From: a virus
Lineage: Duplodnaviria; Heunggongvirae; Uroviricota; Caudoviricetes
Length of the DNA stretch: 38,375 nucleotides
Direction: 5' to 3' (one strand)
IMG/VR virus record: IMGVR_UViG_2541047847_000005
This document shows positions 1 through 23,616 of the stretch, piece after piece. The number at the start of each line of letters is the position of its first letter. The first letter of the stretch is position 1. The notes under the pieces are model-generated. The model made no database searches. It saw only the letters and a program-made list of their open reading frames with translations, and was not told the origin of the DNA. Made by a program: the position numbers and the translations under genes.

Positions 1-1026
1 ATGAAAAAGATGATGATAGCCACACTGGCTGCCGCCAGCGTGCTGCTTGCCGTTGCAAATCAGGCGCATGCTGGCGCGACGCTTGATGCCGTTCAGAAAA
101 AAGGTTTTGTGCAATGCGGGATCAGTGATGGATTACCTGGGTTCTCTTATGCCGATGCTGACGGTAAGTTTTCAGGTATTGATGTAGATGTTTGTCGTGG
201 TGTTGCCGCTGCTGTATTCGGTGACGATACGAAAGTGAAATATACCCCGCTCACTGCAAAAGAACGCTTCACCGCTTTACAGTCAGGGGAGGTGGATTTG
301 CTCTCCCGTAATACGACCTGGACTTCATCTCGCGATGCCGGGATGGGAATGGCATTTACTGGCGTCACTTATTACGACGGCATTGGCTTCCTGACGCACG
401 ATAAAGCGGGGCTAAAAAGCGCGAAAGAACTGGATGGCGCTACCGTCTGTATTCAGGCGGGGACTGATACCGAACTCAACGTCGCCGATTACTTCAAGGC
501 AAATAATATGAAGTACACGCCAGTAACCTTCGATCGCTCAGACGAATCAGCGAAAGCTCTGGAATCAGGCCGCTGTGATACTCTGGCCTCGGATCAATCA
601 CAACTGTATGCCCTACGCATCAAATTAAGCAACCCAGCTGAATGGATTGTCTTACCGGAAGTTATCTCTAAAGAACCACTTGGGCCGGTAGTTCGTCGTG
701 GCGATGATGAATGGTTCTCGATTGTACGCTGGACGCTTTTCGCCATGCTGAATGCTGAAGAGATGGGCATCAATTCCCAGAACGTCGATGAAAAAGCGGC
801 TAATCCAGCAACGCCTGATATGGCACATCTGCTGGGTAAAGAAGGCGATTACGGCAAGGATCTGAAGCTGGATAATAAATGGGCCTTTAACATCATCAAA
901 CAGGTGGGTAACTACTCGGAAATTTTCGAGCGTAACGTAGGTTCAGAAAGCCCGCTGAAAATTAAACGTGGGCAAAATAATCTCTGGAATAACGGCGGTA
1001 TTCAGTACGCGCCGCCCGTGCGTTAA
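1..1026 (+). CDS. yhdW: periplasmic substrate-binding protein of an amino-acid ABC transporter (YhdW/AapJ-like)
   Basis: 341-aa ORF starting at position 1; N-terminal Sec signal peptide MKKMMIATLAAASVLLAVANQAHA; resemblance to E. coli YhdW recalled from memory, not searched; followed by a permease gene. Confidence 0.8.
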   Translation: MKKMMIATLAAASVLLAVANQAHAGATLDAVQKKGFVQCGISDGLPGFSYADADGKFSGIDVDVCRGVAAAVFGDDTKVKYTPLTAKERFTALQSGEVDLLSRNTTWTSSRDAGMGMAFTGVTYYDGIGFLTHDKAGLKSAKELDGATVCIQAGTDTELNVADYFKANNMKYTPVTFDRSDESAKALESGRCDTLASDQSQLYALRIKLSNPAEWIVLPEVISKEPLGPVVRRGDDEWFSIVRWTLFAMLNAEEMGINSQNVDEKAANPATPDMAHLLGKEGDYGKDLKLDNKWAFNIIKQVGNYSEIFERNVGSESPLKIKRGQNNLWNNGGIQYAPPVR

Positions 1027-1093: not shown

Positions 1094-1423
1094 ATGTCTC
1101 ATCGCCGCTCAACCGTTAAAGGCTCACTCTCTTTTGCCAACCCTACGGTTCGCGCCTGGTTATTCCAGATCCTTGCCGTTGTTGCTGTTGTCGGCATTAT
1201 TGGTTGGTTATTTCACAACACTGTAACGAATCTCAGTAATCGCGGCATAACATCAGGATTTGCTTTTCTTGACCGCGGGGCCGGTTTTGGCATCGTTCAG
1301 CATTTGATTGATTATCAGCAAGGCGACACTTACGGACGCGTTTTTATTGTCGGCCTGCTCAATACGCTACTGGTTTCTGCATTGTGTATTGTGTTCGCTT
1401 CTGTTTTGGGCTTCTTTATCTGA
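1094..1423 (+). pseudogene. yhdX: 5-prime fragment of amino-acid ABC transporter permease (YhdX/AapQ-like), truncated by prophage insertion
   Basis: ATG at 1094 preceded by GAGG; hydrophobic permease-like N-terminus; frame runs into TGA at 1421..1423 after only about 110 codons, and downstream sequence is phage-like. Confidence 0.6.
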
Positions 1424-1430
1424 TCAGACA

Positions 1431-1463
1431 TGAGATAAATGAAGGGGGATCCGTGAGATAAAT
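1431..1463 (+). repeat. two direct copies of TGAGATAAAT (1431..1440 and 1454..1463) at the prophage terminus; candidate transposase end-binding sites
   Basis: exact 10-bp direct repeat spaced 23 bp start to start, 10 bp inside the inferred end. Confidence 0.35.
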
Positions 1464-1616
1464 AACGAATTGGAGTGGGTTAACATGGGTTCTGGTGAAC
1501 AGAACTGAAATTCTTTTCCGCTATACGATAGATAAGTCGGGCATTGAAATCATCCTTCCTGGCAACTTAGAATCGAGTTTGCTGAAACATGACCCGCAAC
1601 AAAAAGGATGATTCCA

Positions 1617-1778
1617 ATGACTACTCAAAACAATAAGCATGATAGCCTGGATTACTCAGAAAAGCCCAAAAGCAAGCACATCGTGACGTTCGAGCGCGAT
1701 TCCGGTAGAAAAGGAGAATCGTCTTCCTCTGCCAATAAAACCACTATGCCGGCAGCCCCTGCCCCAGGGAAAAAATAA
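1617..1778 (+). CDS. hypothetical small hydrophilic protein (53 aa), doubtful
   Basis: ATG at 1617 with AAGGA 9 nt upstream; below the ORF-track cutoff; low-complexity Lys/Ser-rich product; convergent with the gene at 1782..2414. Confidence 0.15.
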   Translation: MTTQNNKHDSLDYSEKPKSKHIVTFERDSGRKGESSSSANKTTMPAAPAPGKK

Positions 1779-1781
1779 ACA

Positions 1782-2414
1782 TCATTCATCGTTCGTTGCA
1801 CGAACGCGCCTGATCTCCACTCTGGCAATCTGATCTGCTGGAATATAGGTTGCCAGAGCTCCCCAGTACTTATCAACCACGCCTTTATACTCTTCCCATT
1901 CGTTACTGCCTGAAGGGCTGCTGTGCGTGACGTAAAGAACCATATCGCCTTTATTCCCCAGGGTAAACGGACCGTTAGGCCACTCTTCAAAGTTCCCTGG
2001 CAGCCGTGACATCATACCGGAACCATCGCGAAGAATCACTCTGACCTCGGTAACGCTGAAGCCTGTTTGATCAAACATTGCCTGCCATGCTGAGCTGGTA
2101 TCGTCAGACCATGAAACATCATTATTCCACAGTAATCTGTACATCCATTTGCGACCGTACCTGCGCCACCACGCACCGCATGTAACGGCACACAGAAGTG
2201 CTGGTGGTGTTGCCAGCCAGGCATTCAGACCTGCCCACATAACAGCCTGGTAAGCCATCATTGCTGTCAGGCCAAAAATCAGCGAAGAAAAAGTCACCTC
2301 AATGGGCTTGTGGTGATCCTTCAGTCCCACATTCGCAATAAAATACCCAATATAGCCACTGGTCAGGGTCACCAGTGTTGCCCATGGCAGATTTAACAAC
2401 GAAACGTCAAACAT
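1782..2414 (-). CDS. membrane protein of unknown function (about 3 TM helices plus about 120-aa soluble C-terminal domain); terminal moron candidate
   Basis: ORF 1782..2492; preferred start is the ATG at 2414 (MFDVSLL...) with AGGGAG 5 nt upstream; hydrophobic segments LVTLTSGYIGYFIANVGL, FSSLIFGLTAMMAYQAVMWAGL, ALLCAVTCGAWW; lies after the early-operon terminator. Confidence 0.55.
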   Translation of the reverse strand: MFDVSLLNLPWATLVTLTSGYIGYFIANVGLKDHHKPIEVTFSSLIFGLTAMMAYQAVMWAGLNAWLATPPALLCAVTCGAWWRRYGRKWMYRLLWNNDVSWSDDTSSAWQAMFDQTGFSVTEVRVILRDGSGMMSRLPGNFEEWPNGPFTLGNKGDMVLYVTHSSPSGSNEWEEYKGVVDKYWGALATYIPADQIARVEIRRVRATNDE

Positions 2415-2452
2415 ATTTTCTCCCTGCATCCTGAATACTAAAGAGAGAGCAT

Positions 2453-2488
2453 AAAAAAAGCACGGTAAGGGGTCTACCGTGCTTTTAT
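2453..2488 (-). terminator. rho-independent terminator ending the early operon
   Basis: stem GCACGGTA / TACCGTGC with 7-nt loop (2460..2482); on the minus-strand transcript it is followed by TTTTTTTAT; on the plus strand by TTTTAT, so possibly bidirectional. Confidence 0.7.
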
Positions 2489-2528
2489 ACAATAAGGAGA
2501 TTTTTGAAAGGACTTTAACAAGCAGGAA

Positions 2529-2927
2529 TTATCTGGATTTGTTAACGTCTTTCGTCTCCTCTGGCAGATCTTCATCAAACAACCTGCCCTGCATCCGATC
2601 CAGTTCTTCTTTTCTGACCCGCTTAACCACGCTGTAGACCCACTGAAGCGAAACACCAAACTTGCGGGCCAGTTCGTGGTGGTTGCGTCCGTTAAACTCC
2701 CTGAAGATTTCCCGGTCGCGCTGACTGACCTTCCATACCATGCCCATCGGGAAATAAACGTTTTGCCCGCCCCAGACCTGCATCATTCGGTTCGCGACGG
2801 CCTGACCAATCTGGTCGGCAATTGCGGGCTCAATATCAATAATCTCGCGAACGGTCTCAGAGGTATGCTGTGCCAGCTCCACCAGGAGTTCCGGCCCTTT
2901 ACTTCGAAACTGATTCAGGTCGCTCAT
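2529..2927 (-). CDS. mor: Mor/C-family transcriptional activator of middle/late genes
   Basis: 132 aa; C-terminal motif FNGRNHHELARKFGVSLQWVYSVVKR matches the Mor/C family helix-turn-helix; last gene of the early operon. Confidence 0.7.
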   Translation of the reverse strand: MSDLNQFRSKGPELLVELAQHTSETVREIIDIEPAIADQIGQAVANRMMQVWGGQNVYFPMGMVWKVSQRDREIFREFNGRNHHELARKFGVSLQWVYSVVKRVRKEELDRMQGRLFDEDLPEETKDVNKSR

Positions 2928-3348
2928 GTTTTACTCCCGCAGCTCTGTGCTGCCACTTCTTCAGTTTCTCAATAACACTGCTTGCCTGTTCAGTATTGAG
3001 CCAGCGCAGGGCGCTGATGCCCGTTTCCCGCTTGATCCACCGCGCTAATGCATTTTCTGAACGGTCACGAACAATGCCGGCAGCAGCCATTTCAAGCCAT
3101 AGCGCACGAATTTTCCTGGACTGCGGATGGTTATCCAGCGGTAAACCGGAGCTGGCTTTTCTGGCTGGTTTAACGCGAAAGCCTTTCTTTTTCATGGATT
3201 CCAGCACGCAGTTTAGTTGTGTGGTATCCATTCCTTTGGTTGAGGCTTTACCGGTCAGCCCCTGTAACATCTGGCGGTAGGTGTCTTCATCCATACCCAG
3301 TTCATTACGGGCAATATGGATAAGCTGTATCAGGCGTTTTTTCTGCAT
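2899..3348 (-). CDS. gemA: GemA-like protein (Mu gp16 family)
   Basis: 149 aa; N-terminal QLIHIARNELGMDEDTYRQML motif typical of GemA; AGGAG 5 nt upstream of ATG; overlaps mor by 29 bp. Confidence 0.6.
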   Translation of the reverse strand: MQKKRLIQLIHIARNELGMDEDTYRQMLQGLTGKASTKGMDTTQLNCVLESMKKKGFRVKPARKASSGLPLDNHPQSRKIRALWLEMAAAGIVRDRSENALARWIKRETGISALRWLNTEQASSVIEKLKKWQHRAAGVKHERPESVSK

Positions 3349-3349
3349 A

Positions 3350-3556
3350 TCATCTCCTTTTTTTCAGTCTGTCGGCAACAATGTCGGTTGCAGCTGGCAG
3401 GGTGACTGGCCAGAACAACATGACGGCGGTCATGTACAGGATGTAATGCGCGGTGTCGTAGTGCCTGCCATAGCCCAGGGAACGATGAAGTCTTGCGCTG
3501 CATGATCCTGCGTACATATACCAGAAAAGAAAACAGACAATGGTTTCAGTAGTCAT
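3350..3556 (-). CDS. small membrane protein, hypothetical
   Basis: ORF 3350..3712, preferred start ATG at 3556 (MTTETIV...) with GGGGAGG upstream; hydrophobic. Confidence 0.4.
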   Translation of the reverse strand: MTTETIVCFLFWYMYAGSCSARLHRSLGYGRHYDTAHYILYMTAVMLFWPVTLPAATDIVADRLKKRR

Positions 3557-3776
3557 TCTGAATACCTCCCCATTCGATATGAATATTACGGGCAGCAATG
3601 ACAGGGTCGTTATTCCACCATGCACCTGACATGTATTTTTCAACCTGTTCGCGTCCGGCAATAACACCAATTGTGATCCCCGGCCTGACGTTCTTAAAAA
3701 AGGCGCGGGCAAAAAGGTATCTGGCAGATATTCGGCAGGCTTTTAATTTCCGGCTGTTACCTGATAGCGTAATCAT
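3546..3776 (-). CDS. hypothetical early protein (76 aa)
   Basis: ATG overlaps stop of the upstream gene (ATGA coupling at 3773..3776). Confidence 0.4.
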   Translation of the reverse strand: MITLSGNSRKLKACRISARYLFARAFFKNVRPGITIGVIAGREQVEKYMSGAWWNNDPVIAARNIHIEWGGIQNDY

Positions 3777-4456
3777 CTGGCCTCCAGTTTCTGTTGTTCC
3801 TGCCCACTGACCGGGCGGTGCAGTCTGACGTTCTGCCCTTCACGAAACCCCGCATAGCGCGAGGCGTCGCCATTGCGGCTTCTTCCCGGTTTACGCGCCC
3901 TGGTGGTTTGCGTCTGCGGGTATTTATGTTCCAGCCACTGTTGCATCAGTTCACGCTCATCATCGGTCAGGGCAAAGGACTGTATTTCACTGATAACGGC
4001 CAGTACCCAGCCTTCAGCAAACTGGTCTCCACGGCTGGTACGGGTGGCGTTTTTTATTCTTTTGTTCTGTGCGCTGATATACTGCTGACGCGCCTTTTTC
4101 AGCTGGCGGACCAGCACTTCCCAGGTGTACGCAGCCAGTGCCGCTCGTTCCCGGTTACCGTAGAACCCCACAGACGGATGCGTGCCGGGGTGAATGATGG
4201 AGTTAACACCAAATGCCTCGCGGATGATGTTCATCAGGCCCAGCATGTAGCGCGGTGGACGGAGACTGCCTGTCGGCCAGTAATGACTGATGGTTTCATC
4301 AATATCACTCATAGCAATGTCGGAATGTGTGATGCCGTGAACATCCATCAGTTTACGGGCTCGGCGCAGTGCCAGAGCGGCCTCGTGCGGGTTGCCGGAT
4401 GCGGCCAGCGCCAGCAACTTTTTCAGTTTCTCAATGTGTTTATTCTGGTCTGTCAT
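3773..4456 (-). CDS. hypothetical early protein with DUF2786-like N-terminus
   Basis: ORF 3773..4492, preferred start ATG at 4456 (MTDQNKHIEKLKKLLALAASGNPHEAALAL...) with GGAGA upstream; ATGA coupling with upstream gene. Confidence 0.5.
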   Translation of the reverse strand: MTDQNKHIEKLKKLLALAASGNPHEAALALRRARKLMDVHGITHSDIAMSDIDETISHYWPTGSLRPPRYMLGLMNIIREAFGVNSIIHPGTHPSVGFYGNRERAALAAYTWEVLVRQLKKARQQYISAQNKRIKNATRTSRGDQFAEGWVLAVISEIQSFALTDDERELMQQWLEHKYPQTQTTRARKPGRSRNGDASRYAGFREGQNVRLHRPVSGQEQQKLEAR

Positions 4457-4668
4457 TGTTCTGTATCTCCGGTATTTTTCTGCCGTTTCCATGCCCGGAC
4501 AGCGTCGGACAGCTCTTTCAGGCTGTATGCTGCTTTAAGCTTTTCCCATAACCACTGTGTTGTTATGTGCATCAGCAGGGCAGCCAGGGCTGCCCCCGCA
4601 CTGAGGCATGTCGCCAGGCCAGTAAGAATCAGTGTCCATGCGGTGATTTCCCTGAGTATGTCAGCCAT
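4453..4668 (-). CDS. small membrane protein (71 aa)
   Basis: GGGAGG upstream of ATG at 4668; one long hydrophobic segment. Confidence 0.4.
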   Translation of the reverse strand: MADILREITAWTLILTGLATCLSAGAALAALLMHITTQWLWEKLKAAYSLKELSDAVRAWKRQKNTGDTEQ

Positions 4669-4682
4669 TGAATGCCTCCCGG

Positions 4683-4979
4683 TTACTCGTTCGTGTAAAT
4701 CACGCCCAGTCGTGCAGCCAGACGTTCCAGTTTTTTCTGTTTGTGGAAGTCAATCAGCCGGTCCATCCCCTGAAGGCGCAGTTGCTCTGTCATGATTTCC
4801 ACGTCTGCCAGCTCTGCCGCGAGGTCACTTTCGCTGCCCTGTCCGTTCAGATTGCGGGCAGCACTGGCCGCCAGTTCAGCGGCCTCTTCTGTCAGTTTCA
4901 GGGCCTGTGCGTCCGGCCCGAAACGCTGCAGGGCCAGACGGTAGAGGGCGGTGCGGGTGAGTTCGGTGTTTCGTGTCAT
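4683..4979 (-). CDS. MazG-like nucleotide pyrophosphohydrolase-domain protein (tentative)
   Basis: 98 aa; EEAAEL ... AELADVEIM pattern resembles the EExxE...ExxD metal-binding motif of MazG-type NTP pyrophosphatases. Confidence 0.4.
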   Translation of the reverse strand: MTRNTELTRTALYRLALQRFGPDAQALKLTEEAAELAASAARNLNGQGSESDLAAELADVEIMTEQLRLQGMDRLIDFHKQKKLERLAARLGVIYTNE

Positions 4980-4988
4980 GCCGCGCCC

Positions 4989-5261
4989 TCAGTGCTTCCG
5001 GCTGACGGTGATGTGCAGGCCGCCTTCTGCAGTGGTTTCCATCCGGTACGGCACCTCATGCTCTGCCGTGTGGGTGAGTGTGTTCATCAGTACCTGCAGG
5101 GCAGCCTCCTTTCCGTTGGTCGCCACAATGGCCTGTGTGGCCATGCTGATTAGCGCCGTCAGGACGTGCTTCACATCGGTGAGGTCGCGGCATTCACACT
5201 CGTTGACATAGTGTTCAACAAGAGTTCGGGTGCGCTGTCGTGCTTCCTGTGGGGTAATCAT
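4989..5261 (-). CDS. hypothetical early protein (90 aa)
   Basis: AGGGAGG upstream of ATG at 5261; 4-bp overlap with next gene. Confidence 0.4.
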   Translation of the reverse strand: MITPQEARQRTRTLVEHYVNECECRDLTDVKHVLTALISMATQAIVATNGKEAALQVLMNTLTHTAEHEVPYRMETTAEGGLHITVSRKH

Positions 5262-5452
5262 TGCGCGTCCTCCCTGTCAGGGCGGGAGAATTCTATGACG
5301 GGCACGTCCGCCGAAAAATGCTGGCTGCAGTACGGGCAGACCAGGGTGACACGTACTGCAGGTATGTGATACTTACCGGACATCACGGCGATGGCGCTGT
5401 GAAAACGCAGGGCTGTTATATCCCTCTCGCACTGAATACATTTAAATATCAT
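5258..5452 (-). CDS. small zinc-ribbon protein (CxxC ... CxxC)
   Basis: 64 aa with CIQC and CPYC pairs; GAGGAG upstream. Confidence 0.4.
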   Translation of the reverse strand: MIFKCIQCERDITALRFHSAIAVMSGKYHIPAVRVTLVCPYCSQHFSADVPVIEFSRPDREDAQ

Positions 5453-5549
5453 AATTTAATTCTCCTCTGTTTCCGGCGTGCAGAAGCCCGCGGCGCTGAC
5501 GCCGGAATAAAAAAGAAAATGTTTTTATTAAATAATTAACGTGGTGTGT

Positions 5550-6080
5550 TTACTGCACATCCTGCTCAAAAGGAATTATTGAAAAATCCTCAATATCACT
5601 TTTTATGGTAATACCGGGAATATTTTTCACAGCCTCTTTTTCATTCAGAATGGCATCTTTATTTATTTCCTCCTTTACACGAATAAAGCGCTCAAGCCCC
5701 AGACGTCTCAGTAATTCAATAACATTATCCGCCCCGCGAATGCTGACTGACGGCGGACGGTTTCGCCACTGCACCTCGCCGGTGGTGAGGTTAGCGAACT
5801 TCACCTTCCCGTTGCCGGTCAGTTCATCACGGTGCGCCTCACACCATGTCTGGATACCGGACTGCAGTTCGGCCATGCGTTTTTTCAGGCTCTCGGTGAG
5901 CGGGGCATAACGTGCAGTGATGTCGCCAATGGTGTCATTCATTTCTGTTTCAGCCCTGACCAGTTCACGTTGCGCGTCACCAAGCAGTCTGATTCCCTCA
6001 ATGACCTCTTCGCGTGTCCCCGGCACCCAGAGTGCTGCTGCGGCTTTGATACGTTTTGCCCCTTTTGTACTTTTTGCCAT
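5550..6080 (-). CDS. gam: Gam-like host-nuclease inhibitor (Ku-like DNA-end binding protein)
   Basis: 176 aa; colinear with Mu Gam as recalled (RIKAAAALWVP, LVRAETEMNDTIGDIT, WCEAHRDELT, VKSDIEDFSIIPFEQ). Confidence 0.85.
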   Translation of the reverse strand: MAKSTKGAKRIKAAAALWVPGTREEVIEGIRLLGDAQRELVRAETEMNDTIGDITARYAPLTESLKKRMAELQSGIQTWCEAHRDELTGNGKVKFANLTTGEVQWRNRPPSVSIRGADNVIELLRRLGLERFIRVKEEINKDAILNEKEAVKNIPGITIKSDIEDFSIIPFEQDVQ

Positions 6081-6107
6081 ATTTTATGACTCCTCCTGTT
6101 GTGCTGA

Positions 6108-6377
6108 TTACCACAAAGATTCCGGCCACACGACGCGACAGCCGTGCAGTTCGAAAACGCCCTGACGGAAATGTCCCCTGTGGTCATGACCGGTATACAG
6201 ATAACAGGCCTTTCCCTGCTCAAGCATGCGCATGCAATGCGCACTCCGGGAAACGCGGATGACAGGTTTGTTACCCCTGATGGTGATGCTTTGTACATCC
6301 GTGTTCGTCGCCTTAAGCGCCATAATGGCTGACTGCACTTTGCTGATTTGCTGGTTGATACCTGTGGTGGATTTCAT
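6108..6377 (-). CDS. hypothetical early protein (89 aa) in the position of Mu kil
   Basis: starts 2 nt after the stop of the B-like gene; AGGGG upstream. Confidence 0.4.
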   Translation of the reverse strand: MKSTTGINQQISKVQSAIMALKATNTDVQSITIRGNKPVIRVSRSAHCMRMLEQGKACYLYTGHDHRGHFRQGVFELHGCRVVWPESLW

Positions 6378-6379
6378 TA

Positions 6380-7546
6380 TTAAACCCCTTTGACAACGTC
6401 AGCGTTGACCTGTGGAACCCCGATTTCAGCGGCCAGATTCATGGCGGCTATTACCAGGTTACTGACGGCCAGCGGATACAGCAGGCTGACCATATTTTTA
6501 CGATGACTTCCCGGATTGCTCAGGCGGGCACGTATGGCATCCACTGCGCTGGCGTCCATAATGTCCGTCAGTTGTTTACCGGCCCGTTGCAGTTTGAACG
6601 TCAGAAACTCTTCAAGGTTATTGTCCAGAGGCAGAAGTTCGACCACCTCACAGCGCTGAACGACTTCACGGACTTCCATATTGCGTTCAGACAGTTTTGT
6701 CGCCAGTTCCGGCTGGCCAATCAGCACGATGGACAGCAGTTTTTTGAAACCGGACTCCAGCTCAAAAAAGCGTTTGAGGTGTTTCAGTGTCGGAATGGGC
6801 AGACTGTGGGCCTCCTCAATCACCAGAACGTGGCTGAACCCCGCCTGGCTGCTGTCTTTCAGGACGCGATGCAACTGGCGAAAGCGGGCGTCCTGACTGC
6901 GTCTGATGCTTTCCAGTGGTGCGATGGTACTGATAATGGCTTCGGCAATCGCTGCTGCCTTCAGGGTTTTCCCTTTCACATCGTTGTCTTCCATAGCGAT
7001 GATGTATGGCTCGATAACAATTACCGGCGCATTCTCGCGGTTGATACGTTCAGTCAGGTCGCGGCGCAGCGTGGATTTACCCGCACCGGACTCACCGATG
7101 ACGGCCATAAACCCACCATGACGGGCTGTCTGGTACAACGCCTCACGCACGTAGCGAATATCCGGGGTGGTGAACACATCATCAGAACCCTGCATGGCTT
7201 CGTCGGCGAACGGGTCACGGAAAAGACCAAACGCTTTTTTGGTTGCTGGAAATAACACCTGTTTTTTGAGTAACATATTCTCTTCCTCACTGAGGCTCGT
7301 TTTATCTGTGGTACCCGCTGTACGGGGCGTGGCCGCGCCCTGTACAGCATCAAAACTCTTCGTTGTATCAATCCCCTGACTTTCCAGCCAGGACGCAAGA
7401 CGCCGGCGCACTTCTCCGGGGCTGGTGCGGGGCCACGCGTTATGATTCACAATCTGGGCCAGCGTGGCCTCAGAAACATCGACAGCTCTCGCCACCACCG
7501 CCTGTGGAATACGGGCCTCTTTCAGTTGCTGCTTCAGTACCAGCAT
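6380..7546 (-). CDS. AAA+ transposition helper ATPase (MuB-like target DNA activator)
   Basis: ORF 6380..7585, preferred start ATG at 7546 with GGAGGGAAA upstream; Walker A GESGAGKST; Walker B-like HVLVIEEAH; immediately downstream of the transposase. Confidence 0.8.
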   Translation of the reverse strand: MLVLKQQLKEARIPQAVVARAVDVSEATLAQIVNHNAWPRTSPGEVRRRLASWLESQGIDTTKSFDAVQGAATPRTAGTTDKTSLSEEENMLLKKQVLFPATKKAFGLFRDPFADEAMQGSDDVFTTPDIRYVREALYQTARHGGFMAVIGESGAGKSTLRRDLTERINRENAPVIVIEPYIIAMEDNDVKGKTLKAAAIAEAIISTIAPLESIRRSQDARFRQLHRVLKDSSQAGFSHVLVIEEAHSLPIPTLKHLKRFFELESGFKKLLSIVLIGQPELATKLSERNMEVREVVQRCEVVELLPLDNNLEEFLTFKLQRAGKQLTDIMDASAVDAIRARLSNPGSHRKNMVSLLYPLAVSNLVIAAMNLAAEIGVPQVNADVVKGV

Positions 7547-7556
7547 GTTTCCCTCC

Positions 7557-9326
7557 TCAGTTGCCGTTAACAATGCTGATAACACTGCTGCTGGCCGGTG
7601 TGGTCAGCGTGGCCATGACTTCATCCAGTGCGGCTTCCGGTACGCCGTCCGGGTACTGTGCCGTTAACTGGCGGTAATGTTCCGGCGTCCAGGTAAGGCC
7701 GTCGGCGCTGAACTTATCGCGCAGGGCTTTCGCGGCCTCCACATGAGTCATGGGACGTTGTTCAGTGCGCGGCCCGCGTACGTCAGAGGCCTGACCACGC
7801 TTCGGCATATAGGCCGGAAGTGTGGTGTCGTCGATATGTTTATACGGGTCAAGCCGCCCGCCGAACGGCAGCGCCTTCGCCTTGCGTGCGGCGGCTGCAT
7901 CTGCGGCGTTGTCTGTACCGGTAACCAGCGCTTCAGTTTCTTTTGCCGCCATCTGTGCCGGGGTTTCCGGCAGGGCTTTGTAACTTTCGCCAAATACCGC
8001 CGCGCCTTCAGCAAAGCCAAACTCGTTCTTTCTGACCTCTTCGACCAGGAAGAACGTCTCGTGGCCGTCCTCACCGGTCAGAACCACCTGTGCCACATCG
8101 CTGCGCCATGGGTTACGGGTAATCATCAGTTTTTCACCAACCAGTACGCCCGGTACCGTTGATACGTCAAATTCAGTGCCCCGGAACGAGACACGAAGTT
8201 TTGGCGTGACTTTGCGGAGTTCTGGTGCCGCCACAGCCAGTTCACGACATACCTCAACGGAAGGCGCTTTTTTCAGCTGCTCAGCAGTAATCTTCAGCCA
8301 GATATCCGTGCGGGTTTTACCGTGGCGGCTGTGAACAGCCGTGGCGTTAAAGTGGCTGCGCCATTTCGCGGCCAGCGCGTTGAGTTCTTCCAGACTGTGA
8401 ACCGGCCGGAACTTCAGACCCGGCTCCAGCTTGCGTTCGATAATGTCCCGCGCCTTTTCCACCTGTCCGGTGGCGCGGGCGTTATGCGGCTTGTGCGCTA
8501 TCAGGTCAATGCCCAGTGAGCGGCACATGTTTTTCGTCATACCCGCGGTGTTTGCCGAGCCGGGGTCGAGATAGAGTATTTTTGGCACGCCGTGCAGCAC
8601 GTCTGCGCCGCCACGCTCCTGCATGGCGTTGATAAGCACAGAACACAGGTTCTCACCGGATTCCGCACCCGTCACATACTCAACGTAAATCCAGCCGCTG
8701 GCATGGTCGGTAATCTCATAACTCCACACGCGGTCACTGGCGATACGGGCAAGGTTAGCGGGCTTGTTCTTGTAGAATTTCGCGCTGTCCATCACCTGCA
8801 GCCCTTTGTGTCCATTGCTCAGGTAGTAAAGCGTGCAGAGCGAGGCATCAATCTGCCAGACGTGATTGGGATGCAGACTGGCCACTTCGGTATGCGGCGC
8901 AGGGGCATCCAGTTGTTCCGGGTGCAGGCCATAGTTACGCAGGGCACGGCTGATGGCATCTTCGGACAACGGGAAAAACTCACCGGTGGTTTCATCTGTT
9001 CTGCCTGCGGAGATAAAGCCGTTAGCCCGCAGGGTTTCCACTGCATCTGCGATGGAATAGAGACGCTTACCGTTCTTGCGGGTGGCCTCACGCAGTGTGG
9101 CAGATATCAGCGCGGCTTCGTCGCGGGTCAGGGCGCTGCGCCCGGCATCGGCGCGTTTTTTGCGTTTATCAGTCACAGAGACCTCCTTCAGCCTGCGCAG
9201 CAGAGTGGCGCGGGACATGCCAAGTTCAGCACAGGCAGCGTCGTATATTGCACCGCGTTTACCATGCCCCGCGTCACGTGCCGCGCGGGCGACATAAACC
9301 AGTCGTTCAGTCAGGGCAGCATTCAT
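7557..9326 (-). CDS. DDE transposase (Mu A-like, integrase-core fold)
   Basis: 589 aa; N-terminal HTH region; candidate DDE residues in WQIDAS, LYLDPGSAN and GQVEKARDIIE; GGAGG upstream. Confidence 0.85.
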   Translation of the reverse strand: MNAALTERLVYVARAARDAGHGKRGAIYDAACAELGMSRATLLRRLKEVSVTDKRKKRADAGRSALTRDEAALISATLREATRKNGKRLYSIADAVETLRANGFISAGRTDETTGEFFPLSEDAISRALRNYGLHPEQLDAPAPHTEVASLHPNHVWQIDASLCTLYYLSNGHKGLQVMDSAKFYKNKPANLARIASDRVWSYEITDHASGWIYVEYVTGAESGENLCSVLINAMQERGGADVLHGVPKILYLDPGSANTAGMTKNMCRSLGIDLIAHKPHNARATGQVEKARDIIERKLEPGLKFRPVHSLEELNALAAKWRSHFNATAVHSRHGKTRTDIWLKITAEQLKKAPSVEVCRELAVAAPELRKVTPKLRVSFRGTEFDVSTVPGVLVGEKLMITRNPWRSDVAQVVLTGEDGHETFFLVEEVRKNEFGFAEGAAVFGESYKALPETPAQMAAKETEALVTGTDNAADAAAARKAKALPFGGRLDPYKHIDDTTLPAYMPKRGQASDVRGPRTEQRPMTHVEAAKALRDKFSADGLTWTPEHYRQLTAQYPDGVPEAALDEVMATLTTPASSSVISIVNGN

Positions 9327-9329
9327 TGG

Positions 9330-10241
9330 TTATGCCTCCAGCCCGTTAATCTGTGGCGTCGGCTCAGTCAGCCATGAAGGCGCGGCATTGCCTGTTGGCT
9401 CATCCGGCAGGTCAAATGTGGAGCGCAGGCTACGCGCTGTGCTTTCCAGTTGACAGACCAGGCCTGCCATGAAGTCTCTGGGGGTATCAATCATGTTTTC
9501 AGCACAATATGCGCACAGCGTCTCAAAAGCGCTGGACAGTCGAACGGCGATGGCAGATTCCGCCTCAACCGCTAACGCGGTCACTTCTGCCCGCAGTTTC
9601 TTCACCTCTTCATCAGGCTCAGGTGGCTGAATACGGGATTTCTTCTCCAGTCTGGTGGAGAGTGAGTCTATTTTTTCATTTTTGTCGGCGAGTACGCGCT
9701 GTTGTGCTGCGTTGGTTTCGCGCGCTTCGCGCAGGGCCTGACGCAATTCACGTACTGACATGCGATCAACATCGTCAAGCGTCAGTCCGGCAACTGTGCC
9801 ACCGTCGGCCAGTTCAGCAAGGTCGTCGTCATCTTCAGCAACAAGTTCAAATAATTTTGCCTTACCTAAAAGCGACAACGTTGTCGCTTTTGGCTCTAGT
9901 TTTGGTGAAAGGTATTTCAAAGATGCTTTCATCATTCGTTGTGCTGCGCGCACATGCAGACCAAGTTGTTCTTCTACAATTCCAACAAAGTCCCCGTGAG
10001 GTTCATTTTCTTTGAGAATAATAAGTCGTTTACCTGCTTCCAGCATGGCCTCAGCGCTCTGTGCCATATAAAACCGAGCCTCATGAACTATGCGATCACG
10101 CTCATAGGGCTGACCATCGCCAAACTGCTGCATGATCTCCATACGATGCTGTGTCATGGCGTTCAGACTGACATTGAGATCATCCGACAGCGGTACCTCG
10201 GCGTTCAGTTCAGTGTTAATCGGTGATTTGGTGCGTCCCAT
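9330..10241 (-). CDS. hypothetical early protein (303 aa), acidic and coiled-coil rich
   Basis: AAGGAG 6 nt upstream of ATG at 10241; lies between the regulators and the transposase. Confidence 0.5.
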   Translation of the reverse strand: MGRTKSPINTELNAEVPLSDDLNVSLNAMTQHRMEIMQQFGDGQPYERDRIVHEARFYMAQSAEAMLEAGKRLIILKENEPHGDFVGIVEEQLGLHVRAAQRMMKASLKYLSPKLEPKATTLSLLGKAKLFELVAEDDDDLAELADGGTVAGLTLDDVDRMSVRELRQALREARETNAAQQRVLADKNEKIDSLSTRLEKKSRIQPPEPDEEVKKLRAEVTALAVEAESAIAVRLSSAFETLCAYCAENMIDTPRDFMAGLVCQLESTARSLRSTFDLPDEPTGNAAPSWLTEPTPQINGLEA

Positions 10242-10251
10242 TTATTACTCC

Positions 10252-10560
10252 TTACAAACGACTACCTGAAATGACACGTTGGTTGATTTCGTTAATGCGA
10301 TCCTGTGCACGTGCCATCTCGTTACTGTGGGCCATAGCGATCTGCAGTAACTGGATGCCCGGCGCGAAACGCCCGTTTTCCAGTTTCAGGGCCAACCCTT
10401 CTTCAATGAGGGTGTTGAGTGCCCGGTTGATGTTTGCCGGTGACTCGTGCAGTGCTGCCGCCAGTTCACCGTTGGAAATACCGTTCAGGGCATGACCGCG
10501 CAGCGCTTTGAGTACCCGGAGGATGCGACTGCCGGAGCTTGAAACATTCGTCTTACTCAT
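10252..10560 (-). CDS. winged-helix DNA-binding protein (putative early regulator)
   Basis: ORF 10252..10566, preferred start ATG at 10560; segment ILRVLKAL...ISNGELAAALHESPANINRALNTLIEEGLA looks like a wHTH. Confidence 0.45.
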   Translation of the reverse strand: MSKTNVSSSGSRILRVLKALRGHALNGISNGELAAALHESPANINRALNTLIEEGLALKLENGRFAPGIQLLQIAMAHSNEMARAQDRINEINQRVISGSRL

Positions 10561-10612
10561 CTGCATACCTCTTTTGCGATATGTGATAACCTTTTACAAA
10601 GACTCAAAATCT

Positions 10613-10801
10613 TCAGGCTGCCTGAGCTGTTGATTTCAGCCCCAACTTCACGGCGATTTCATGGGATTTACCGTAACGGGCTTTGGTCTGCCCATTGAGA
10701 ACGCGGTATACCTCATTGCGGTTGTAGCCGTTTTCTTCTGCCCAGCGGGTGAAAGTGATCCCGCGCTGGCGGAAGAGAGCTTTGACTTGTTCTGCAGTCA
10801 T
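10613..10801 (-). CDS. ner: Ner-like DNA-binding protein (Ner/Nlp family), first gene of early operon
   Basis: 62 aa; pattern ALFRQRGITFTRWAEENGY...LNGQ...G..IA..LG resembles Mu Ner / E. coli Nlp; AGGAG 6 nt upstream of ATG at 10801. Confidence 0.7.
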   Translation of the reverse strand: MTAEQVKALFRQRGITFTRWAEENGYNRNEVYRVLNGQTKARYGKSHEIAVKLGLKSTAQAA

Positions 10802-10901
10802 CGTTGTCTCCTTTGTTGATGCAATGATGTTTGCCTTATGTGTGATAGATTATGGTGCAGATTACCTCACCAGTCAACTTAAAGAGTGCAGAAAAACTCA
10901 C
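10802..10901. promoter_or_regulatory. divergent promoter/operator region between ner-like and repressor genes
   Basis: 100-bp AT-rich gap between divergent regulator genes; contains three GTGCAGA / TGCAATGA-like repeats. Confidence 0.4.
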
Positions 10902-11240
10902 ATGATCGGGTTACGTATTAAAGAAGAAAGAGAGCGTCTATCTCTTACACAGCAAGGGTTGGCTGATGCTATAGGTGTGGCAAAGAGAACTTTCATTGAT
11001 TGGGAAAAAGATCGCACTTCTCCTACTGCAGTGCAGTTATCTGCACTATCAGAAATCGGTGTAGATATTTTGTATGTAGTTACTGGGGTGCGGAGTCAGC
11101 CTGTTGTTGCACCTTATGTGTCACAAGAAAAGAAAGAGTTAATGGATGCATTCGACGAAATGAGCCCCGAACAACGGAGGGCAATTCTTGAGGTCGGCAA
11201 AGTCTTCATTCAACCCAAACCAAGCAAACTCGCAGGCTGA
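10902..11240 (+). CDS. XRE-family HTH repressor (prophage immunity repressor)
   Basis: ORF 10749..11240, preferred start ATG at 10902; N-terminal LRIKEERERLSLTQQGLADAIGVAKRTFIDWEKDRTSP is a Cro/C1-type HTH; no LexA-like peptidase domain; low GC. Confidence 0.7.
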   Translation: MIGLRIKEERERLSLTQQGLADAIGVAKRTFIDWEKDRTSPTAVQLSALSEIGVDILYVVTGVRSQPVVAPYVSQEKKELMDAFDEMSPEQRRAILEVGKVFIQPKPSKLAG

Positions 11241-11326
11241 TTTTGACCTGGACACAAAGGACAGGTGGTTGATCTGGATGCTTTCAGAAAACATCGCCAG
11301 TGACATAGTGGAAGTTGTTTGGTTTA

Positions 11327-11357
11327 CCGGAAAGCATTGTGCTTTCCGGTTTTGTTT
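11327..11357 (+). terminator. rho-independent terminator downstream of repressor gene
   Basis: perfect 10-bp stem CCGGAAAGCA / TGCTTTCCGG with 3-nt loop followed by TTTTGTTT; abuts the stop codon of the convergent methyltransferase gene. Confidence 0.6.
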
Positions 11358-12121
11358 CAGAAGTTGCAGATTACCAGTTCACGGCGCGGCGTGGATTTCC
11401 CCGCCAGACTGTAGTTGATGTTCACTGTCTGTATGTTCAGTCCAGTGAACACCTCGCGCATCTGTGGGATATCGTTCACCGAAATTATCATTTTTCCTCT
11501 GATGCACCGGGCCAGCTCTGCCAGCCGCGAGTAGTTCCCTTCAGGAAAATCCACACCATAGCCTTCCGTACCCAGGTACGGTGGGTCGCAGTAGAACAGT
11601 GTGTGCGGACGATCATAACGCTCAATGCACTGTTGCCAGTCCATGTGTTCTATGACTGTTCTGGAAAGCCGCAGGTGTGCTGCTGACAGTTCTTCTTCAA
11701 TACGCAGCAGGTTGAAGCGTGGCGGGGATGTGGTGGAGGTACCGAAGCTGTGCTCTGCCACCTTGCCGCCAAACGCCTGCTTCTGAAGGTAGTAGAACCG
11801 TGCCGCACGCTGGATATCCGTCAGTGTTTCTTCCGGGGTGATCTGCAGCCATTTGTAGATCTGACGGCTGACCAGCGCCCATTTGAACTGGCGGACAAAT
11901 TCTTCCAGGTGATGCTTTACCACCCGGTACAGATTCACCAGTTCACCGTTGATATCATTGATGACTTCGATCTTGCCGGGTGTCTTAAGAAAATAGAGCG
12001 CTGCTGCCCCACAAAACGGCTCCACATAACATTCATGCGCCGGAAACAGCGGCAGGATGTGTTTTGCCAGGCGACGTTTGCCACCAATCCATGGAACGAT
12101 GGGTAATGTCTTCATTTTCAT
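11357..12121 (-). CDS. orphan Dam-class (D12) N6-adenine DNA methyltransferase
   Basis: 254 aa; motif I FCGAAALYF and motif IV DPPY; no adjacent restriction endonuclease gene. Confidence 0.85.
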   Translation of the reverse strand: MKMKTLPIVPWIGGKRRLAKHILPLFPAHECYVEPFCGAAALYFLKTPGKIEVINDINGELVNLYRVVKHHLEEFVRQFKWALVSRQIYKWLQITPEETLTDIQRAARFYYLQKQAFGGKVAEHSFGTSTTSPPRFNLLRIEEELSAAHLRLSRTVIEHMDWQQCIERYDRPHTLFYCDPPYLGTEGYGVDFPEGNYSRLAELARCIRGKMIISVNDIPQMREVFTGLNIQTVNINYSLAGKSTPRRELVICNF

Positions 12122-12312
12122 AATCTGTAAGCCTTTTACAATTATTAAAAATATGGCAGGCTAGTCTGGTCTCGCGAGACTGACTGAACCTCGGTCGGCT
12201 CACAGCCACTTCTGTGGGACGATGGCCAGCCCGGTGGGTCCGAAGCACCGGGCTGGTCGTTCTTTCATGATGCGGCAGGGATAGTGGGATTTCTGTTAAT
12301 GTGGTTTAGGGA

Positions 12313-12528
12313 TTATCCGGGGCGATTTTCTGACCTTATCCGGTCCAGGGCATAAGTAATACCTTCTGCAAAAACAGAAGTATCAAACTGCTTTTGTATT
12401 CCCTGAAAATGAAAAGCGGCACGACAGACACTCAGTTCTCCGCGATGTAACCGGATAATATCTTCCAGAACATTGTTCACTGCTTCAGCACGGCGCTGAT
12501 GTTCTGTTAACGTTAATCGGGGATTCAT
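12313..12528 (-). CDS. hypothetical small protein (71 aa)
   Basis: ATG at 12528 with AAGGAG 6 nt upstream; about 190 bp upstream of the methyltransferase gene. Confidence 0.5.
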   Translation of the reverse strand: MNPRLTLTEHQRRAEAVNNVLEDIIRLHRGELSVCRAAFHFQGIQKQFDTSVFAEGITYALDRIRSENRPG

Positions 12529-12529
12529 G

Positions 12530-12931
12530 ATGCACTCCTTAAATGATGATTTTTATGCACTCACCGGCAAAATATTCTGCCGATTACTGAACACGCATCC
12601 GGCACCTCAGGTTTTGATTTATTCTGGTTTTTTCGATATCCCGGACCAGGTTGATCACGACCAGAAAAAGTGCCGGTATTTTATTGATACGCTGATATGG
12701 CTTCGGGATAACAGCTATATTCGTTACTCTCAGTTGCTGGCTGTGGGAGCGGCTGATGTCGTCCTCACGGAAAAAACGCTCCGTCTGCTCAATGCCACGC
12801 CGACCCTTCTGCAGCCCCGGCCCGCACCATTTAAAGAGTCACTTCTGGATGCAGTAAAAACCGGTGAAAATGCAGTCATCGCTGAATGCGTATCCCGGAT
12901 TATGCGTTACGTGTTTAATGAACGTAAGTGA
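12530..12931 (+). CDS. hypothetical protein (about 133 aa)
   Basis: ORF 12527..12931; about 400 bp open on plus strand with no competing ORF; ATG at 12530 has GGGGA 6 nt upstream; start overlaps the start of the divergent 71-aa gene. Confidence 0.4.
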   Translation: MHSLNDDFYALTGKIFCRLLNTHPAPQVLIYSGFFDIPDQVDHDQKKCRYFIDTLIWLRDNSYIRYSQLLAVGAADVVLTEKTLRLLNATPTLLQPRPAPFKESLLDAVKTGENAVIAECVSRIMRYVFNERK

Positions 12932-13650
12932 GGTTTATCCGCTGTCTGCATAATCCCGATAGCCAGTGCGAGGGGAAGTAATTCCGGGGAAACTCTTTCA
13001 AACAGCGACTCCCATTCTCCTCTCGCCATCACTCTGTCCAGCCCGCCCCCCAGTTGCATTTCAGCAATCTTCCTGATTTCCCGGAACAACGCCGCTTTGA
13101 TCTCTTCGTGCTCAGCTTTATTTTCCGGTGTCAGAATGTATTCGTCGAAGAACCGGGGAGGCTGGTTAACGGGGAGCGTGTTCACCGGGATGTGTTCCTG
13201 TTTCCCGTACTTCGGGGCAGAAAAACATTCTGTTGGCTGACCGGTGAGTTTACGTAGCTCCTTCATGAGCAGCTCCTGATCGTAAACTGTCATCAGTGCC
13301 GCAATGGTGGCATGCAGTGCATCGGGCAGTATCCAGGGTTGCCGGCCCGTGGGGCATATAACATCCAGCAGCTCATTCGTCCGACAGATACGCTCCTCGC
13401 CGTATGACAACAGGCCCTGTCCCGTGTATTCCTCTAGCCTGATCACTGTGCCACCCCGTGGCTTCTGCCAGGTCGTCAGATCTTCGCCATTCATACGGCG
13501 CTCATTCTCCACGTCAGCAGCATCGACAATGACGCTGTTTCCGAGTTCCTGTTTCACCATCTCTTCTATCCGCGCCAGTACGTAACTTTTACCGCTGCCC
13601 ACAGGACCGGACACAGTGACAGTGATGACCGGATTCAGTGTGTGCGTCAT
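12907..13650 (-). CDS. P-loop NTPase/kinase-like protein of unknown function
   Basis: 247 aa; Walker A GPVGSGKS at residues 15-22; GAGGAG 8 nt upstream of ATG; not a recognisable Mu core gene. Confidence 0.6.
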   Translation of the reverse strand: MTHTLNPVITVTVSGPVGSGKSYVLARIEEMVKQELGNSVIVDAADVENERRMNGEDLTTWQKPRGGTVIRLEEYTGQGLLSYGEERICRTNELLDVICPTGRQPWILPDALHATIAALMTVYDQELLMKELRKLTGQPTECFSAPKYGKQEHIPVNTLPVNQPPRFFDEYILTPENKAEHEEIKAALFREIRKIAEMQLGGGLDRVMARGEWESLFERVSPELLPLALAIGIMQTADKPHLRSLNT

Positions 13651-13780
13651 ATCGTATTCTCCTCTGTGAATAATTCATCGTTTATCCTGCACATCCCGTA
13701 TCCCCGGCTCTCTTAACGCGCTTTAAAATCCTTCGCGCCCTGTATTTGTGATGCTGTCTCCACCAGACAAGGAGACACAC

Positions 13781-14131
13781 ATGAAAAACCTGAAAAAATT
13801 CATTCCCCCTGTTAAAAAACCTCGCCTCAGCGGCTGGCTGCTGACCTCAGTGCTGTTGCTGGGCACCATCGCTCTGGTCTCGCCACAGCAGTTGCCTGTT
13901 GTGATCTACAAGCTGGCACTCATCACGCTGGCAGCAGTGCTGGGTTACTGGCTTGACCGTTCGCTCTTCCCCAAAGCCCGTCCCGGTCAGTACCTGAAAC
14001 ATGACGACAGGCTGATGGCTGAAGGGCGTTTCCCGGTACAGACCGGCCTTCACCTGGTGTTTTCTGCTGCGTTAATCCGCCGTGCACTGATTGTTGCAGC
14101 GGTCTGTCTGGCTGTTGCGATGGGGCTTTAA
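13781..14131 (+). CDS. holin-like membrane protein (first gene of lysis cassette)
   Basis: ORF 13748..14131, preferred start ATG at 13781 with GGAGA 5 nt upstream; about 3 hydrophobic segments; immediately precedes the endolysin gene. Confidence 0.5.
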   Translation: MKNLKKFIPPVKKPRLSGWLLTSVLLLGTIALVSPQQLPVVIYKLALITLAAVLGYWLDRSLFPKARPGQYLKHDDRLMAEGRFPVQTGLHLVFSAALIRRALIVAAVCLAVAMGL

Positions 14132-14133
14132 TC

Positions 14134-20508: not shown

Positions 20509-20510
20509 CA

Positions 20511-20969: not shown

Positions 20970-21183
20970 GTTTTCTCTCTTCAGGCGGGTGATTTATCAT
21001 TGCCAGCGAATGAGGGGCTGTATTACCTTTATAAAGGCTTTACAGCCTCTGTTTTATAACCGCCTCCGGTTCACCGCATTGCTTTCCCTGTCCTTCTCCC
21101 CTGATGTTTTCTAAAGCAGATTAAAATCGCCGGGCCTGCATTTCTCACAAACTGTCTCCGACAACATAACGCGGGACAGCAAA
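20970..21183 (+). promoter_or_regulatory. intergenic region upstream of the I-like gene; candidate late promoter
   Basis: 214-bp non-coding gap inside the otherwise tightly packed late region; two small hairpins followed by T-rich runs. Confidence 0.3.
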
Positions 21184-23615: not shown

Positions 23616-23616
23616 C

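Follow-up and report, generated by a model that had tools for sequence, protein, structure and literature searches.

The window, by which we mean the whole stretch of 38,375 nucleotides analysed here, joins a piece of host chromosome to a phage element inside a permease gene. Its first 1420 positions comprise E. coli yhdW and the first 109 codons of yhdX, and match the yhdW-yhdX region of several E. coli strains, ATCC 11775, NU14 and ZJ3920 among them, with 100% identity. The yhdX frame starts with the ATG at 1094 and is open up to codon 109 (ATC, 1418-1420), and the TGA at 1421-1423 is derived from the insert. The features around the junction are:

1..1026, plus strand: yhdW (aapJ-like), host gene for the substrate-binding protein of an amino-acid ABC transporter, 100% identical to and annotated in ATCC 11775, NU14 and ZJ3920
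1094..1420, plus strand: 5' fragment of the host permease gene yhdX, codons 1-109, from the alignment to intact yhdX
1415..1420, no strand: left copy of the target-site duplication TTTATC, from the right junction of the GCA_000459535.1 contig
1421..38375 in the window, no strand: BcepMu-type transposable prophage, 37,695 bp in total

In the alignment to the intact yhdX of strain ZJ3920, 60 of 60 positions are identical up to 1420 and the similarity is random from 1421 on. Comparison with an uninterrupted allele thus fixes the junction exactly at 1420|1421, and the intact allele is unlike the window beyond 1421. The original prediction had the yhdX frame intact to 1420 and closed by a TGA at 1421; this description holds, and all features that it listed lie where it had placed them. 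Exact protein look-up recovered the truncated YhdX of 109 aa on at least 24 contigs, drawn from several SRA read sets as well as one NCBI assembly, and an assembly error can therefore be discounted as the source of the junction. At least six assemblies or read sets that are independent of one another contain the identical yhdX junction, which is absent from all complete E. coli genomes searched, among which the top coverage is 74%.

The early operon of the phage part reads leftward and comprises the immunity region, tnpA, tnpB, gam, gemA and, at the left end, mor; tnpB is the next gene downstream of tnpA. The genes that follow the early operon are directed rightward and encode lysis functions, a Mu-like head and a P2-like tail (sheath, tube, baseplate). 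The small terminase subunit, a DUF3486 protein, is encoded at 16142-16690. The gene order of the E. coli element is identical to that of BcepMu. The following features of the early region are relevant here:

2456..2486, minus strand: strong intrinsic-terminator-like hairpin after mor, 13 pairs and a T-run, from the terminator scan
2529..2927, minus strand: mor, late or middle transcription activator (Pfam Mor, E = 1e-43)
2899..3348, minus strand: gemA (Pfam GemA on the gene in the same place of contig piece L008, 11806-12255)
5550..6080, minus strand: gam, host-nuclease inhibitor (Pfam Phage_Mu_Gam; so annotated in M-17)
6380..7546, minus strand: tnpB, AAA+ transposition ATPase, ExeA/Eha-like (AAA_22, E = 4e-20; phrog_296 'DNA transposition protein', E = 2e-93)
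7557..9326, minus strand: tnpA, DDE (rve) transposase of BcepMu/B3 type, 589 aa (Pfam rve; identity to BcepMu gp09 and B3 TnpA)

TnpA is encoded intact. Over at least 98% of its 589 aa it is 68.5% identical to BcepMu gp09 and 56.6% identical to B3 TnpA, and its identity to the transposase of phage PhiKM is 98.6%. The putative triad D160, D254 and E290 (DD35E-type) is invariant in comparison to BcepMu and is aligned with the core of Tn552 p480. Against Pfam, TnpA matches rve alone, without a match to the Mu DNA-binding and Mu-transpos_C domains, and against PDB sequences there is no match to MuA at E <= 0.01. A tblastn search of plasmids with TnpA mainly returned the IS481 family at ~25% identity, and no Tn552.

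Right end, target duplication and insertion sites

The right junction was read on contig KE701168.1 of GCA_000459535.1, which was matched via exact look-up of the truncated YhdX and of the tail-fibre protein. Pieces of this contig (L008 and L031) agree with the window at every position over 11.4 and 12.7 kb (0 mismatches), and the last 50 bp of the element are L031 13363-13412. The right junction on this contig is ...GCGCATCA|TTTATCGGT, in which the element closes with a terminal CA; further excerpts of it are ...GCGCATCA|TTTATCGGTCTGG and ...GCATTTATCGCGCGGCGCATCA|TTTATCGGTCTGGCGAGAC. Past the bar, yhdX resumes 6 bp before the point at which the left flank stops, so that, on the intact allele, left and right flank share 6 bp. 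The right junction therefore gives the prophage a size of 37,695 bp, 5'-TG...CA-3' termini and a 6-bp target-site duplication, TTTATC. Its right end corresponds to window position 39115, which is 740 bp past the window, and identical ends, with TGATCAG on the left, are present in six other copies.

The TGATCAG start had been considered consistent with the 5' TG ends of transposable phages, and the terminal CA observed at the right end bears this out. The target duplication that had been predicted for the right end is likewise present, but its length had been given as 5 bp (TTATC), and is in fact 6 bp (TTTATC). The difference is explained by the transposase, which belongs to the Tn552-related BcepMu/B3 type instead of being a MuA.

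The insertion in yhdX is one of many. The left end of the element is found in E. coli at at least 20 distinct loci, including rstB, tdh, malE, fliC, rfaH, fadM, flgJ and yhdX, and 20 distinct right flanks were recovered. Six further E. coli copies, each at its own locus, could be read at both junctions and are flanked by ACCAGC, CATTTC, GCTTTC, ACCTTC, TCTGAG and GCTCGC, respectively; including TTTATC, the 6-bp duplication is perfect in all seven paired junctions. The first 1.1 kb of the element is matched over at least 80% in 118 of 5426 complete E. coli genomes, with up to three matching places of the left end per genome if full and partial matches are counted together.

Two other origins of the junction have to be weighed, namely site-specific integration by an integrase at attP/attB and a chimeric assembly. 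Prophages of the integrase type are generally frequent, and a serine recombinase gene is indeed located near the right end. This sole recombinase, however, is a 190-aa Resolvase/HTH_7 protein whose gene adjoins an inverted repeat of 200 nt within the tail-fibre genes, which makes it a Gin-like invertase rather than an integrase. The window contains no tRNA, no tyrosine or large serine integrase with a fixed att site was found, and the insertion sites are all different. Site-specific integration is refuted by the occurrence of the same ends at at least 20 unrelated loci, each with a different 6-bp duplication, and a chimera is contradicted by the yhdX junction recurring in six or more data sets, assemblies or reads, of independent origin. 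We regard the probability of either origin as practically negligible. That transposition, and not site-specific integration, splits yhdX had been proposed before, and the exact 1420|1421 junction, the CA with its adjoining target repeat and the at least 20 loci substantiate it.

For the host, the YhdX permease should be non-functional and the yhdWXYZ operon should be disrupted, because the insertion interrupts yhdX behind codon 109 and a stop follows at once. The right phage end provides an in-frame ATG, which opens a 302-aa ORF consisting of 16 phage-encoded residues and YhdX 108-393. This fusion ORF is located downstream of the outward-reading invertase gene, from which yhdY and yhdZ could be transcribed.

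Terminal repeats and a proposed mode of transposition

The left end of the prophage begins with two adjacent units of 23 bp, each of which contains one copy of a 10-bp core:

1421..1443, plus strand: 23-bp unit 1, putative outer transposase-binding site, with the terminal 5'-TG (cleavage end) and the core TGAGATAAAT at 1431-1440
1444..1466, plus strand: 23-bp unit 2, putative inner transposase-binding site, with the core TGAGATAAAT at 1454-1463

Both copies of TGAGATAAAT are exact and occupy nt 11-20 and 34-43 of the element, with a start-to-start distance of 23 bp. Taken alone, the 10-mer shows no enrichment when one mismatch is permitted (4 matches vs 1.46 expected); the bipartite motif GNGATAAAT-N14-GNGATAAAT has a single occurrence in the 38-kb window and none in 100 shuffles. 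Read inward, the E. coli element and BcepMu have these ends:

E. coli element, left end: TGATCAGACAT-GAGATAAATG-N13-GAGATAAATA
E. coli element, right end: TGATGCGCCGC-GCGATAAATG-N13-GCGATAAATG
BcepMu, left end: TGAAGAGAGGT-GAGATATTTC-N13-GCGATATTTC
BcepMu, right end: TGAAGCGCGGC-GCGATATTTC-N13-GCGATAAATT

The repeat cores are located at nt 12-21 and 35-44 in all four ends, and both ends of both elements have the layout TGA-N8-G(A/C)GATAAAT-N13-G(A/C)GATAAWT. B3 has this layout as well, at both of its ends, with slightly degenerate cores (GAGAAATAC and GCGATAAAG). Related ends were sought with the pattern TG-N11-GATA-N19-GATA in 80 loci with related transposases from species-representative genomes. 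The pattern is present in 37 of these 80 loci, from Enterobacterales, Burkholderiales, Neisseriales, Pseudomonadales and others, and all 37 matches are on the expected strand and 3.4-7 kb downstream of tnpA, compared to about 3 random-strand matches expected by chance. The remaining loci, in which the strict pattern is missing, may have divergent ends or lie on cut contigs. The consensus of the related left ends is TGA...G..gTGAGATAAat-N13-g.gaGATAA.T.

The ends of BcepMu and phiE255 carry 23-bp imperfect direct repeats, which have been proposed as transposase sites (PMC2920897). Judging from their sequence, we interpret the two TGAGATAAAT repeats as the putative TnpA-binding sites of this family. 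The two direct repeats that had been reported at 1431 and 1454 are thus confirmed as exact, and their layout is conserved in BcepMu, B3 and the 37 related left ends. Transposition into yhdX would proceed with TnpA bound to the two 23-bp units of each end and pairing both ends, followed by nicking 3' of the terminal CA on each strand. The resulting 3'-OH ends would be joined, with a stagger of 6 bp, to phosphates of a target bound by TnpB, and gap repair or replication would then yield the TTTATC duplication.

A classical Mu-type prophage with MuA, a 5-bp duplication and L1-L3/R1-R3 sites was the implicit assumption of the original prediction, and several features agree with it: the TG...CA ends, the Mor, GemA and Gam genes, the random insertion, and the invertible tail-fibre segment with its Gin-like invertase. 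The duplication, however, is of 6 bp in seven of seven copies, which together with the transposase family refutes this assignment. Further, TnpA possesses the Pfam domain rve only and has its nearest phage relatives in BcepMu and B3, the early operon, like that of BcepMu, is reversed compared with Mu, and each end displays two adjacent 23-bp units and not three spaced sites. A Mu-type origin in the strict sense is therefore highly improbable. Transposase, gene order and the 6-bp duplication therefore identify the element as a phage of the BcepMu/B3 type, not as Mu sensu stricto, and we consider it very well supported that the prophage is a transposable (Mu-like) myovirus of the BcepMu/B3 type, 37.7 kb long, whose left terminus is window position 1421 and which was inserted into E. 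coli yhdX by DDE transposition.

Accessory module, hairpin and G-run array at the left end

Inward of the terminal repeats, the left end contains the following features:

1472..1496, plus strand: remnant of a G-run array with 10-bp phasing, candidate pac or accessory site (GGA 1472, GGG 1477, GGG 1487, GG 1494)
1489..1505, plus strand: hairpin GTTCTG-gtgaa-CAGAAC with a T-rich tail GAAATTCTTTT to ~1516, from the terminator scan (element nt 69-85)
1544..1573, plus strand: sigma-70-like promoter TTGAAA-18-TAGAAT, upstream of the 53-aa ORF, a consensus match only (10/12)
1617..1778, plus strand: 53-aa ORF of the accessory module (phrog_15726; WP_001571575.1)
1782..2414, minus strand: 210-aa ORF of the accessory module, with a hydrophobic N-terminal region (phrog_12870)

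Close enterobacterial relatives such as the prophages of Trabulsiella, Mixta and Erwinia (L035-L048) are homologous to the element at nt 1-69 and again from nt 1153 (mor), and the homologous parts are separated by 128 bp in these enterobacterial relatives versus 1083 bp in the window. Because homology to the close relatives ends at nt 69, the hairpin lies exactly at the outer edge of a lineage-specific module. This module comprises the 53-aa ORF, the 210-aa ORF and the terminator after mor; neither ORF has a hit in Pfam, NCBIfam or PADLOC, and in PHROGs both match only families of unknown function.

The hairpin at 1489-1505 has a folding energy of -9.6 kcal/mol (z = -1.9), which 8 of 200 shuffles match; its stability is marginal and not clearly beyond chance. 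At the corresponding position of the relatives' left ends there is no hairpin, i.e., it is unconserved outside the E. coli lineage, and a test for known RNAs found no match in Rfam. The hairpin and its T-rich run had been pointed out earlier, and both are present at 1489-1505; as a functional feature, however, the hairpin is not sustained, given its marginal statistics and lack of conservation. We consider it most likely that the hairpin is incidental. Its interpretation as an operator palindrome was tried and rejected, as similar palindromes in the immunity region or elsewhere are not above chance (3 vs 1.4 expected). Further inward, a 16-nt inverted repeat (1542-1557/1604-1619) pairs the -35 region with the ribosome-binding site and the ATG of the 53-aa ORF. 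This pairing dominates the fold of 1530-1640 (-22.9 kcal/mol; z = -1.7), and cannot form in a transcript begun at the internal promoter.

A regular array of G-runs emerges from the comparison of left ends. In 36 distinct left ends the starts of G-runs peak at nt 46, 56, 66 and 76; of 70 distances between successive runs, 44 measure exactly 10 bp. The same array is found at the left end of B3, is conserved from B3 over BcepMu to the enterobacterial prophages, and does not occur at the right ends of the E. coli element, BcepMu and B3. The window retains G-runs at nt 57, 67 and 74. Those at nt 67 and 74 fall within or beside the left arm of the hairpin, which therefore overlaps the array. The first G-run (nt 46) is missing from the window, whose sequence past nt 69 is wholly replaced: in the E. 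coli lineage the 1.08-kb two-gene module takes the place of nt 70-196, with the array partly kept, and the lineage is still spreading. The array is a plausible candidate for a pac or accessory site.

Several readings of this region can be compared. The hairpin with its T-tail may act as an intrinsic terminator that, jointly with the inverted repeat masking the ribosome-binding site, insulates the prophage end from host read-in; IS10 is insulated from read-in transcription by a comparable arrangement. The terminator scan lists the hairpin on the plus strand only (7 pairs, tail GAAATTCTTT), so oriented that it would meet transcription coming from yhdWX; the inverted repeat of 16 nt is able to mask the ribosome-binding site of the 53-aa ORF, and a diverged plasmid copy retains the hairpin and the T-run. 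In that plasmid copy, however, the outer pair is broken and no second change restores it. The T-run begins 4 nt past the stem and contains interruptions, and the stability is marginal both for the hairpin (z = -1.9, 8 of 200 shuffles) and for the larger fold (z = -1.7), in addition to the missing hairpin in the relatives and the missing Rfam match. A terminator role that blocks yhdWX read-in is a weak possibility, and insulation by hairpin and inverted repeat together appears quite unlikely.

Alternatively, the hairpin is incidental and its left arm belongs to the left-end-specific G-run array, which would serve as pac or as an accessory protein-binding site. This is suggested by the phasing at nt 46, 56, 66 and 76 in 36 left ends, by the presence of the array in B3 and its lack at right ends, and by the G-runs that the window keeps at nt 57, 67 and 74; moreover, the pac of BcepMu is located at the left end (PMC2920897). 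The array of the window is nevertheless incomplete, and if the full array were essential the lineage could not spread, yet it does. We regard this explanation as a real possibility that falls short of being probable. Doubtful, in our view, is the more extensive proposal that the sub-terminal left end holds two undescribed functional elements, i.e., the G-run array at nt 46-80 as a pac or accessory transpososome site and, at the outer edge of the accessory module, the hairpin with its T-run and the inverted repeat, which could insulate this module from host read-in.

Significance and comparison with known systems

Element type, end repeats and duplication length are already described, and near-identical phages are deposited. 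Only two points are mildly new: the phased G-run array that left ends share across the family, and the fact that a cargo module has partly replaced it in the E. coli lineage; the array constitutes a concrete candidate for a pac or accessory site of the BcepMu/B3-type family. For a widespread transposable prophage of E. coli the exact boundaries are now fixed, with its ends, its 6-bp duplication and its core sites; otherwise the value of the analysis lies mainly in annotation, and includes the observation that yhdX is disrupted in the source lineage. The end architecture of BcepMu and B3 is extended to at least 37 prophages of Enterobacterales, Burkholderiales, Neisseriales and Pseudomonadales, and the pattern TG-N11-GATA-N19-GATA can be used to delimit such prophages, which integrase-centred tools may miss.

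With Mu the E. coli element shares the transposable temperate lifestyle, the TG...CA termini, the Mor, GemA and Gam proteins, repeated (here putative) transposase sites at both ends, presumably left-end packaging, and an invertible tail-fibre segment with a Gin-type invertase. The early genes of Mu run in the same direction as its late genes, whereas the early operon of the E. coli element is opposite to the late genes, which is the BcepMu orientation. Mu has three transposase sites per end. It also differs in its duplication of 5 bp (PMC8705779) versus 6 bp, and the E. coli TnpA lacks the Mu-specific Pfam domains.

TnpA was also compared directly with p480 of Tn552 from pN315. The two are 23% identical over 144 aa, restricted to the catalytic core (pairwise E = 5e-5), with D, D and E aligned, which suggests a distant kinship more than membership of the Tn552 family, and the record of BcepMu labels its transposase 'Tn552/IS1604 rve transposase'. 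Tn552, however, is a staphylococcal transposon and not a phage, and p480 possesses the Pfam domain Mu-transpos_C, which is missing from TnpA and from BcepMu gp09.

The Pseudomonas phage B3 (Beetrevirus) and B3-like phages form a further group; B3 resembles the E. coli element in its TnpA (56.6% identity over the full length) and in the layout of its left end, including the G-runs phased at 10 bp. It has a 6-bp target duplication and TG...CA ends (PMC8705779), and the same footprint is reported for B3/Tn552-family transposases in general, whereas Mu leaves 5 bp (PMC8705779). The repeat cores of B3 are more degenerate than those of the E. coli element, and B3 is classed in Siphoviridae (PMC8705779), whereas the tail genes of the E. 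coli element are P2-like.

The nearest deposited phage genomes are Escherichia phage PhiKM, Klebsiella phage KP12 and Escherichia phage Phi06_2974 B, with DNA identities in the early region of 96% for PhiKM and 86% for the other two, and TnpA identities of 98.6% (PhiKM) and 93.5% (Phi06_2974 B). Their similarity only begins at element nt ~1149 (mor), and they are devoid of the 1.08-kb module that bears the hairpin.

The Burkholderia phage BcepMu (Bcepmuvirus), which is grouped here with phiE255, is similar in its transposase, with a TnpA identity of 68.5%, and its gene order is matched. BcepMu also has the TGA terminus and two G(A/C)GATA(A/T)(A/T)T cores 23 bp apart at both ends. It differs in its host, and a nucleotide search with the E. 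coli element returns enterobacterial relatives only, with no similarity to BcepMu. In contrast to BcepMu, the E. coli element has the 1.08-kb two-ORF module at its left end, and at the right end, where BcepMu has an acyltransferase, it has a Mu-G-like invertible tail-fibre segment with an invertase. Lineage-specific cargo at the ends is likewise a feature of BcepMu and phiE255 (PMC2920897).

Organisation of the left end

The left end carries, immediately inside the two putative transposase sites, an accessory module that replaces 128 bp conserved among close relatives (the enterobacterial prophage L035 and others). The features discussed in this section lie in the window as follows:

1422-1425, GATC site at the terminus (TGATCA)
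1448-1451, GATC site between the two putative transposase sites (GGATCC)
1490-2572, accessory module of 1083 bp
1542-1557 and 1604-1619, arms of a 16-nt inverted repeat (94% complementary)
11357-12121, prophage-encoded D12-class (Dam-like) methyltransferase

Two ORFs lie in the module, one of 53 aa and one of 210 aa whose N-terminal region is hydrophobic, together with the hairpin and a terminator. The module is missing from PhiKM and KP12, both deposited phages, since their match to the window begins only at about nt 1149 of the element. Through the 16-nt inverted repeat, a promoter-like site (1544-1573) has its -35 region paired with the ribosome-binding site and ATG of the 53-aa ORF; the fold z-score of the region is only -1.7, and the pairing could mask translation solely on transcripts reading in from beyond the end of the element.

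Immediately after the second putative transposase site, the left ends of BcepMu/B3-type elements display G-runs (GGGA) phased at 10 bp (nt 46, 56, 66 and 76); the comparison covers 1466-1500 of the window, the first 100 nt of the left ends L035-L102 and 1-80 of locus L118. These runs are absent from the right ends of BcepMu/B3-type elements, and we regard the array as a candidate pac or accessory site. The pair of GATC sites, at the terminus and between the transposase sites, is likewise confined to the left end. Together with the methyltransferase it brings to mind a control of end use by methylation, which is only a thought because the terminal GATC is not kept in relatives.

Solo copies of left-end sequence on plasmids

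A solo copy of window 1430-1574 (about 145 bp, 90% identical) is found on large E. coli plasmids of 180-220 kb, represented by:

L116 4001-4144 (NZ_CP098193.1 43000-43143), solo copy of window 1430-1574, with counterparts on some 100 further plasmids of this kind

The copy includes both TGAGATAAAT sites and the hairpin, of which the outer pair is broken; the terminal TG is displaced, and remnants of IS1 and IS3 adjoin the copy. It is probably the decayed end of a related element.

Variation among copies and the right end

Up to three places per genome are matched by the left-end query in other genomes. In the copy of E. coli FORC_031 (32,867 bp) a deletion of about 6 kb has removed tnpA, tnpB and adjacent early genes, but this copy still possesses both ends and its own 6-bp duplication. 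Cargo differs between copies, and an ORF runs from the right end into yhdX:

window 12527-13650, region of variable cargo separating the immunity genes from the lysis genes
L031 (source contig, past the window) 12762-13334, Gin-like invertase gene, reading outward
L031 13365-14273, fusion ORF of 302 aa

The cargo region of the window holds a 134-aa and a 247-aa ORF (phrog_2266 and phrog_3787), where the M-17 and KE50 copies have a nucleoid-associated protein and a 401-aa hypothetical protein instead. The right end of the prophage supplies an in-frame ATG, which creates an ORF of 16 phage-end residues joined to YhdX 108-393, directly downstream of the invertase gene.

Target sites and tail-fibre inversion compared with Mu

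At 20 target sites the 6-bp duplications lean weakly and symmetrically towards C at position 2 (12 of the 20) and G at position 5 (8 of the 20), a pattern reminiscent of the central-GC preference in target choice by Mu; the sample is too small to trust. A second likeness concerns the tail fibre:

window 36808-37007 and 38173-38372, 200-nt inverted repeat (88%)

The repeat flanks alternative tail-fibre C-termini and the assembly gene, making up an invertible host-range segment that resembles the G segment of Mu. The window terminates within this segment, both orientations of which occur among other copies.
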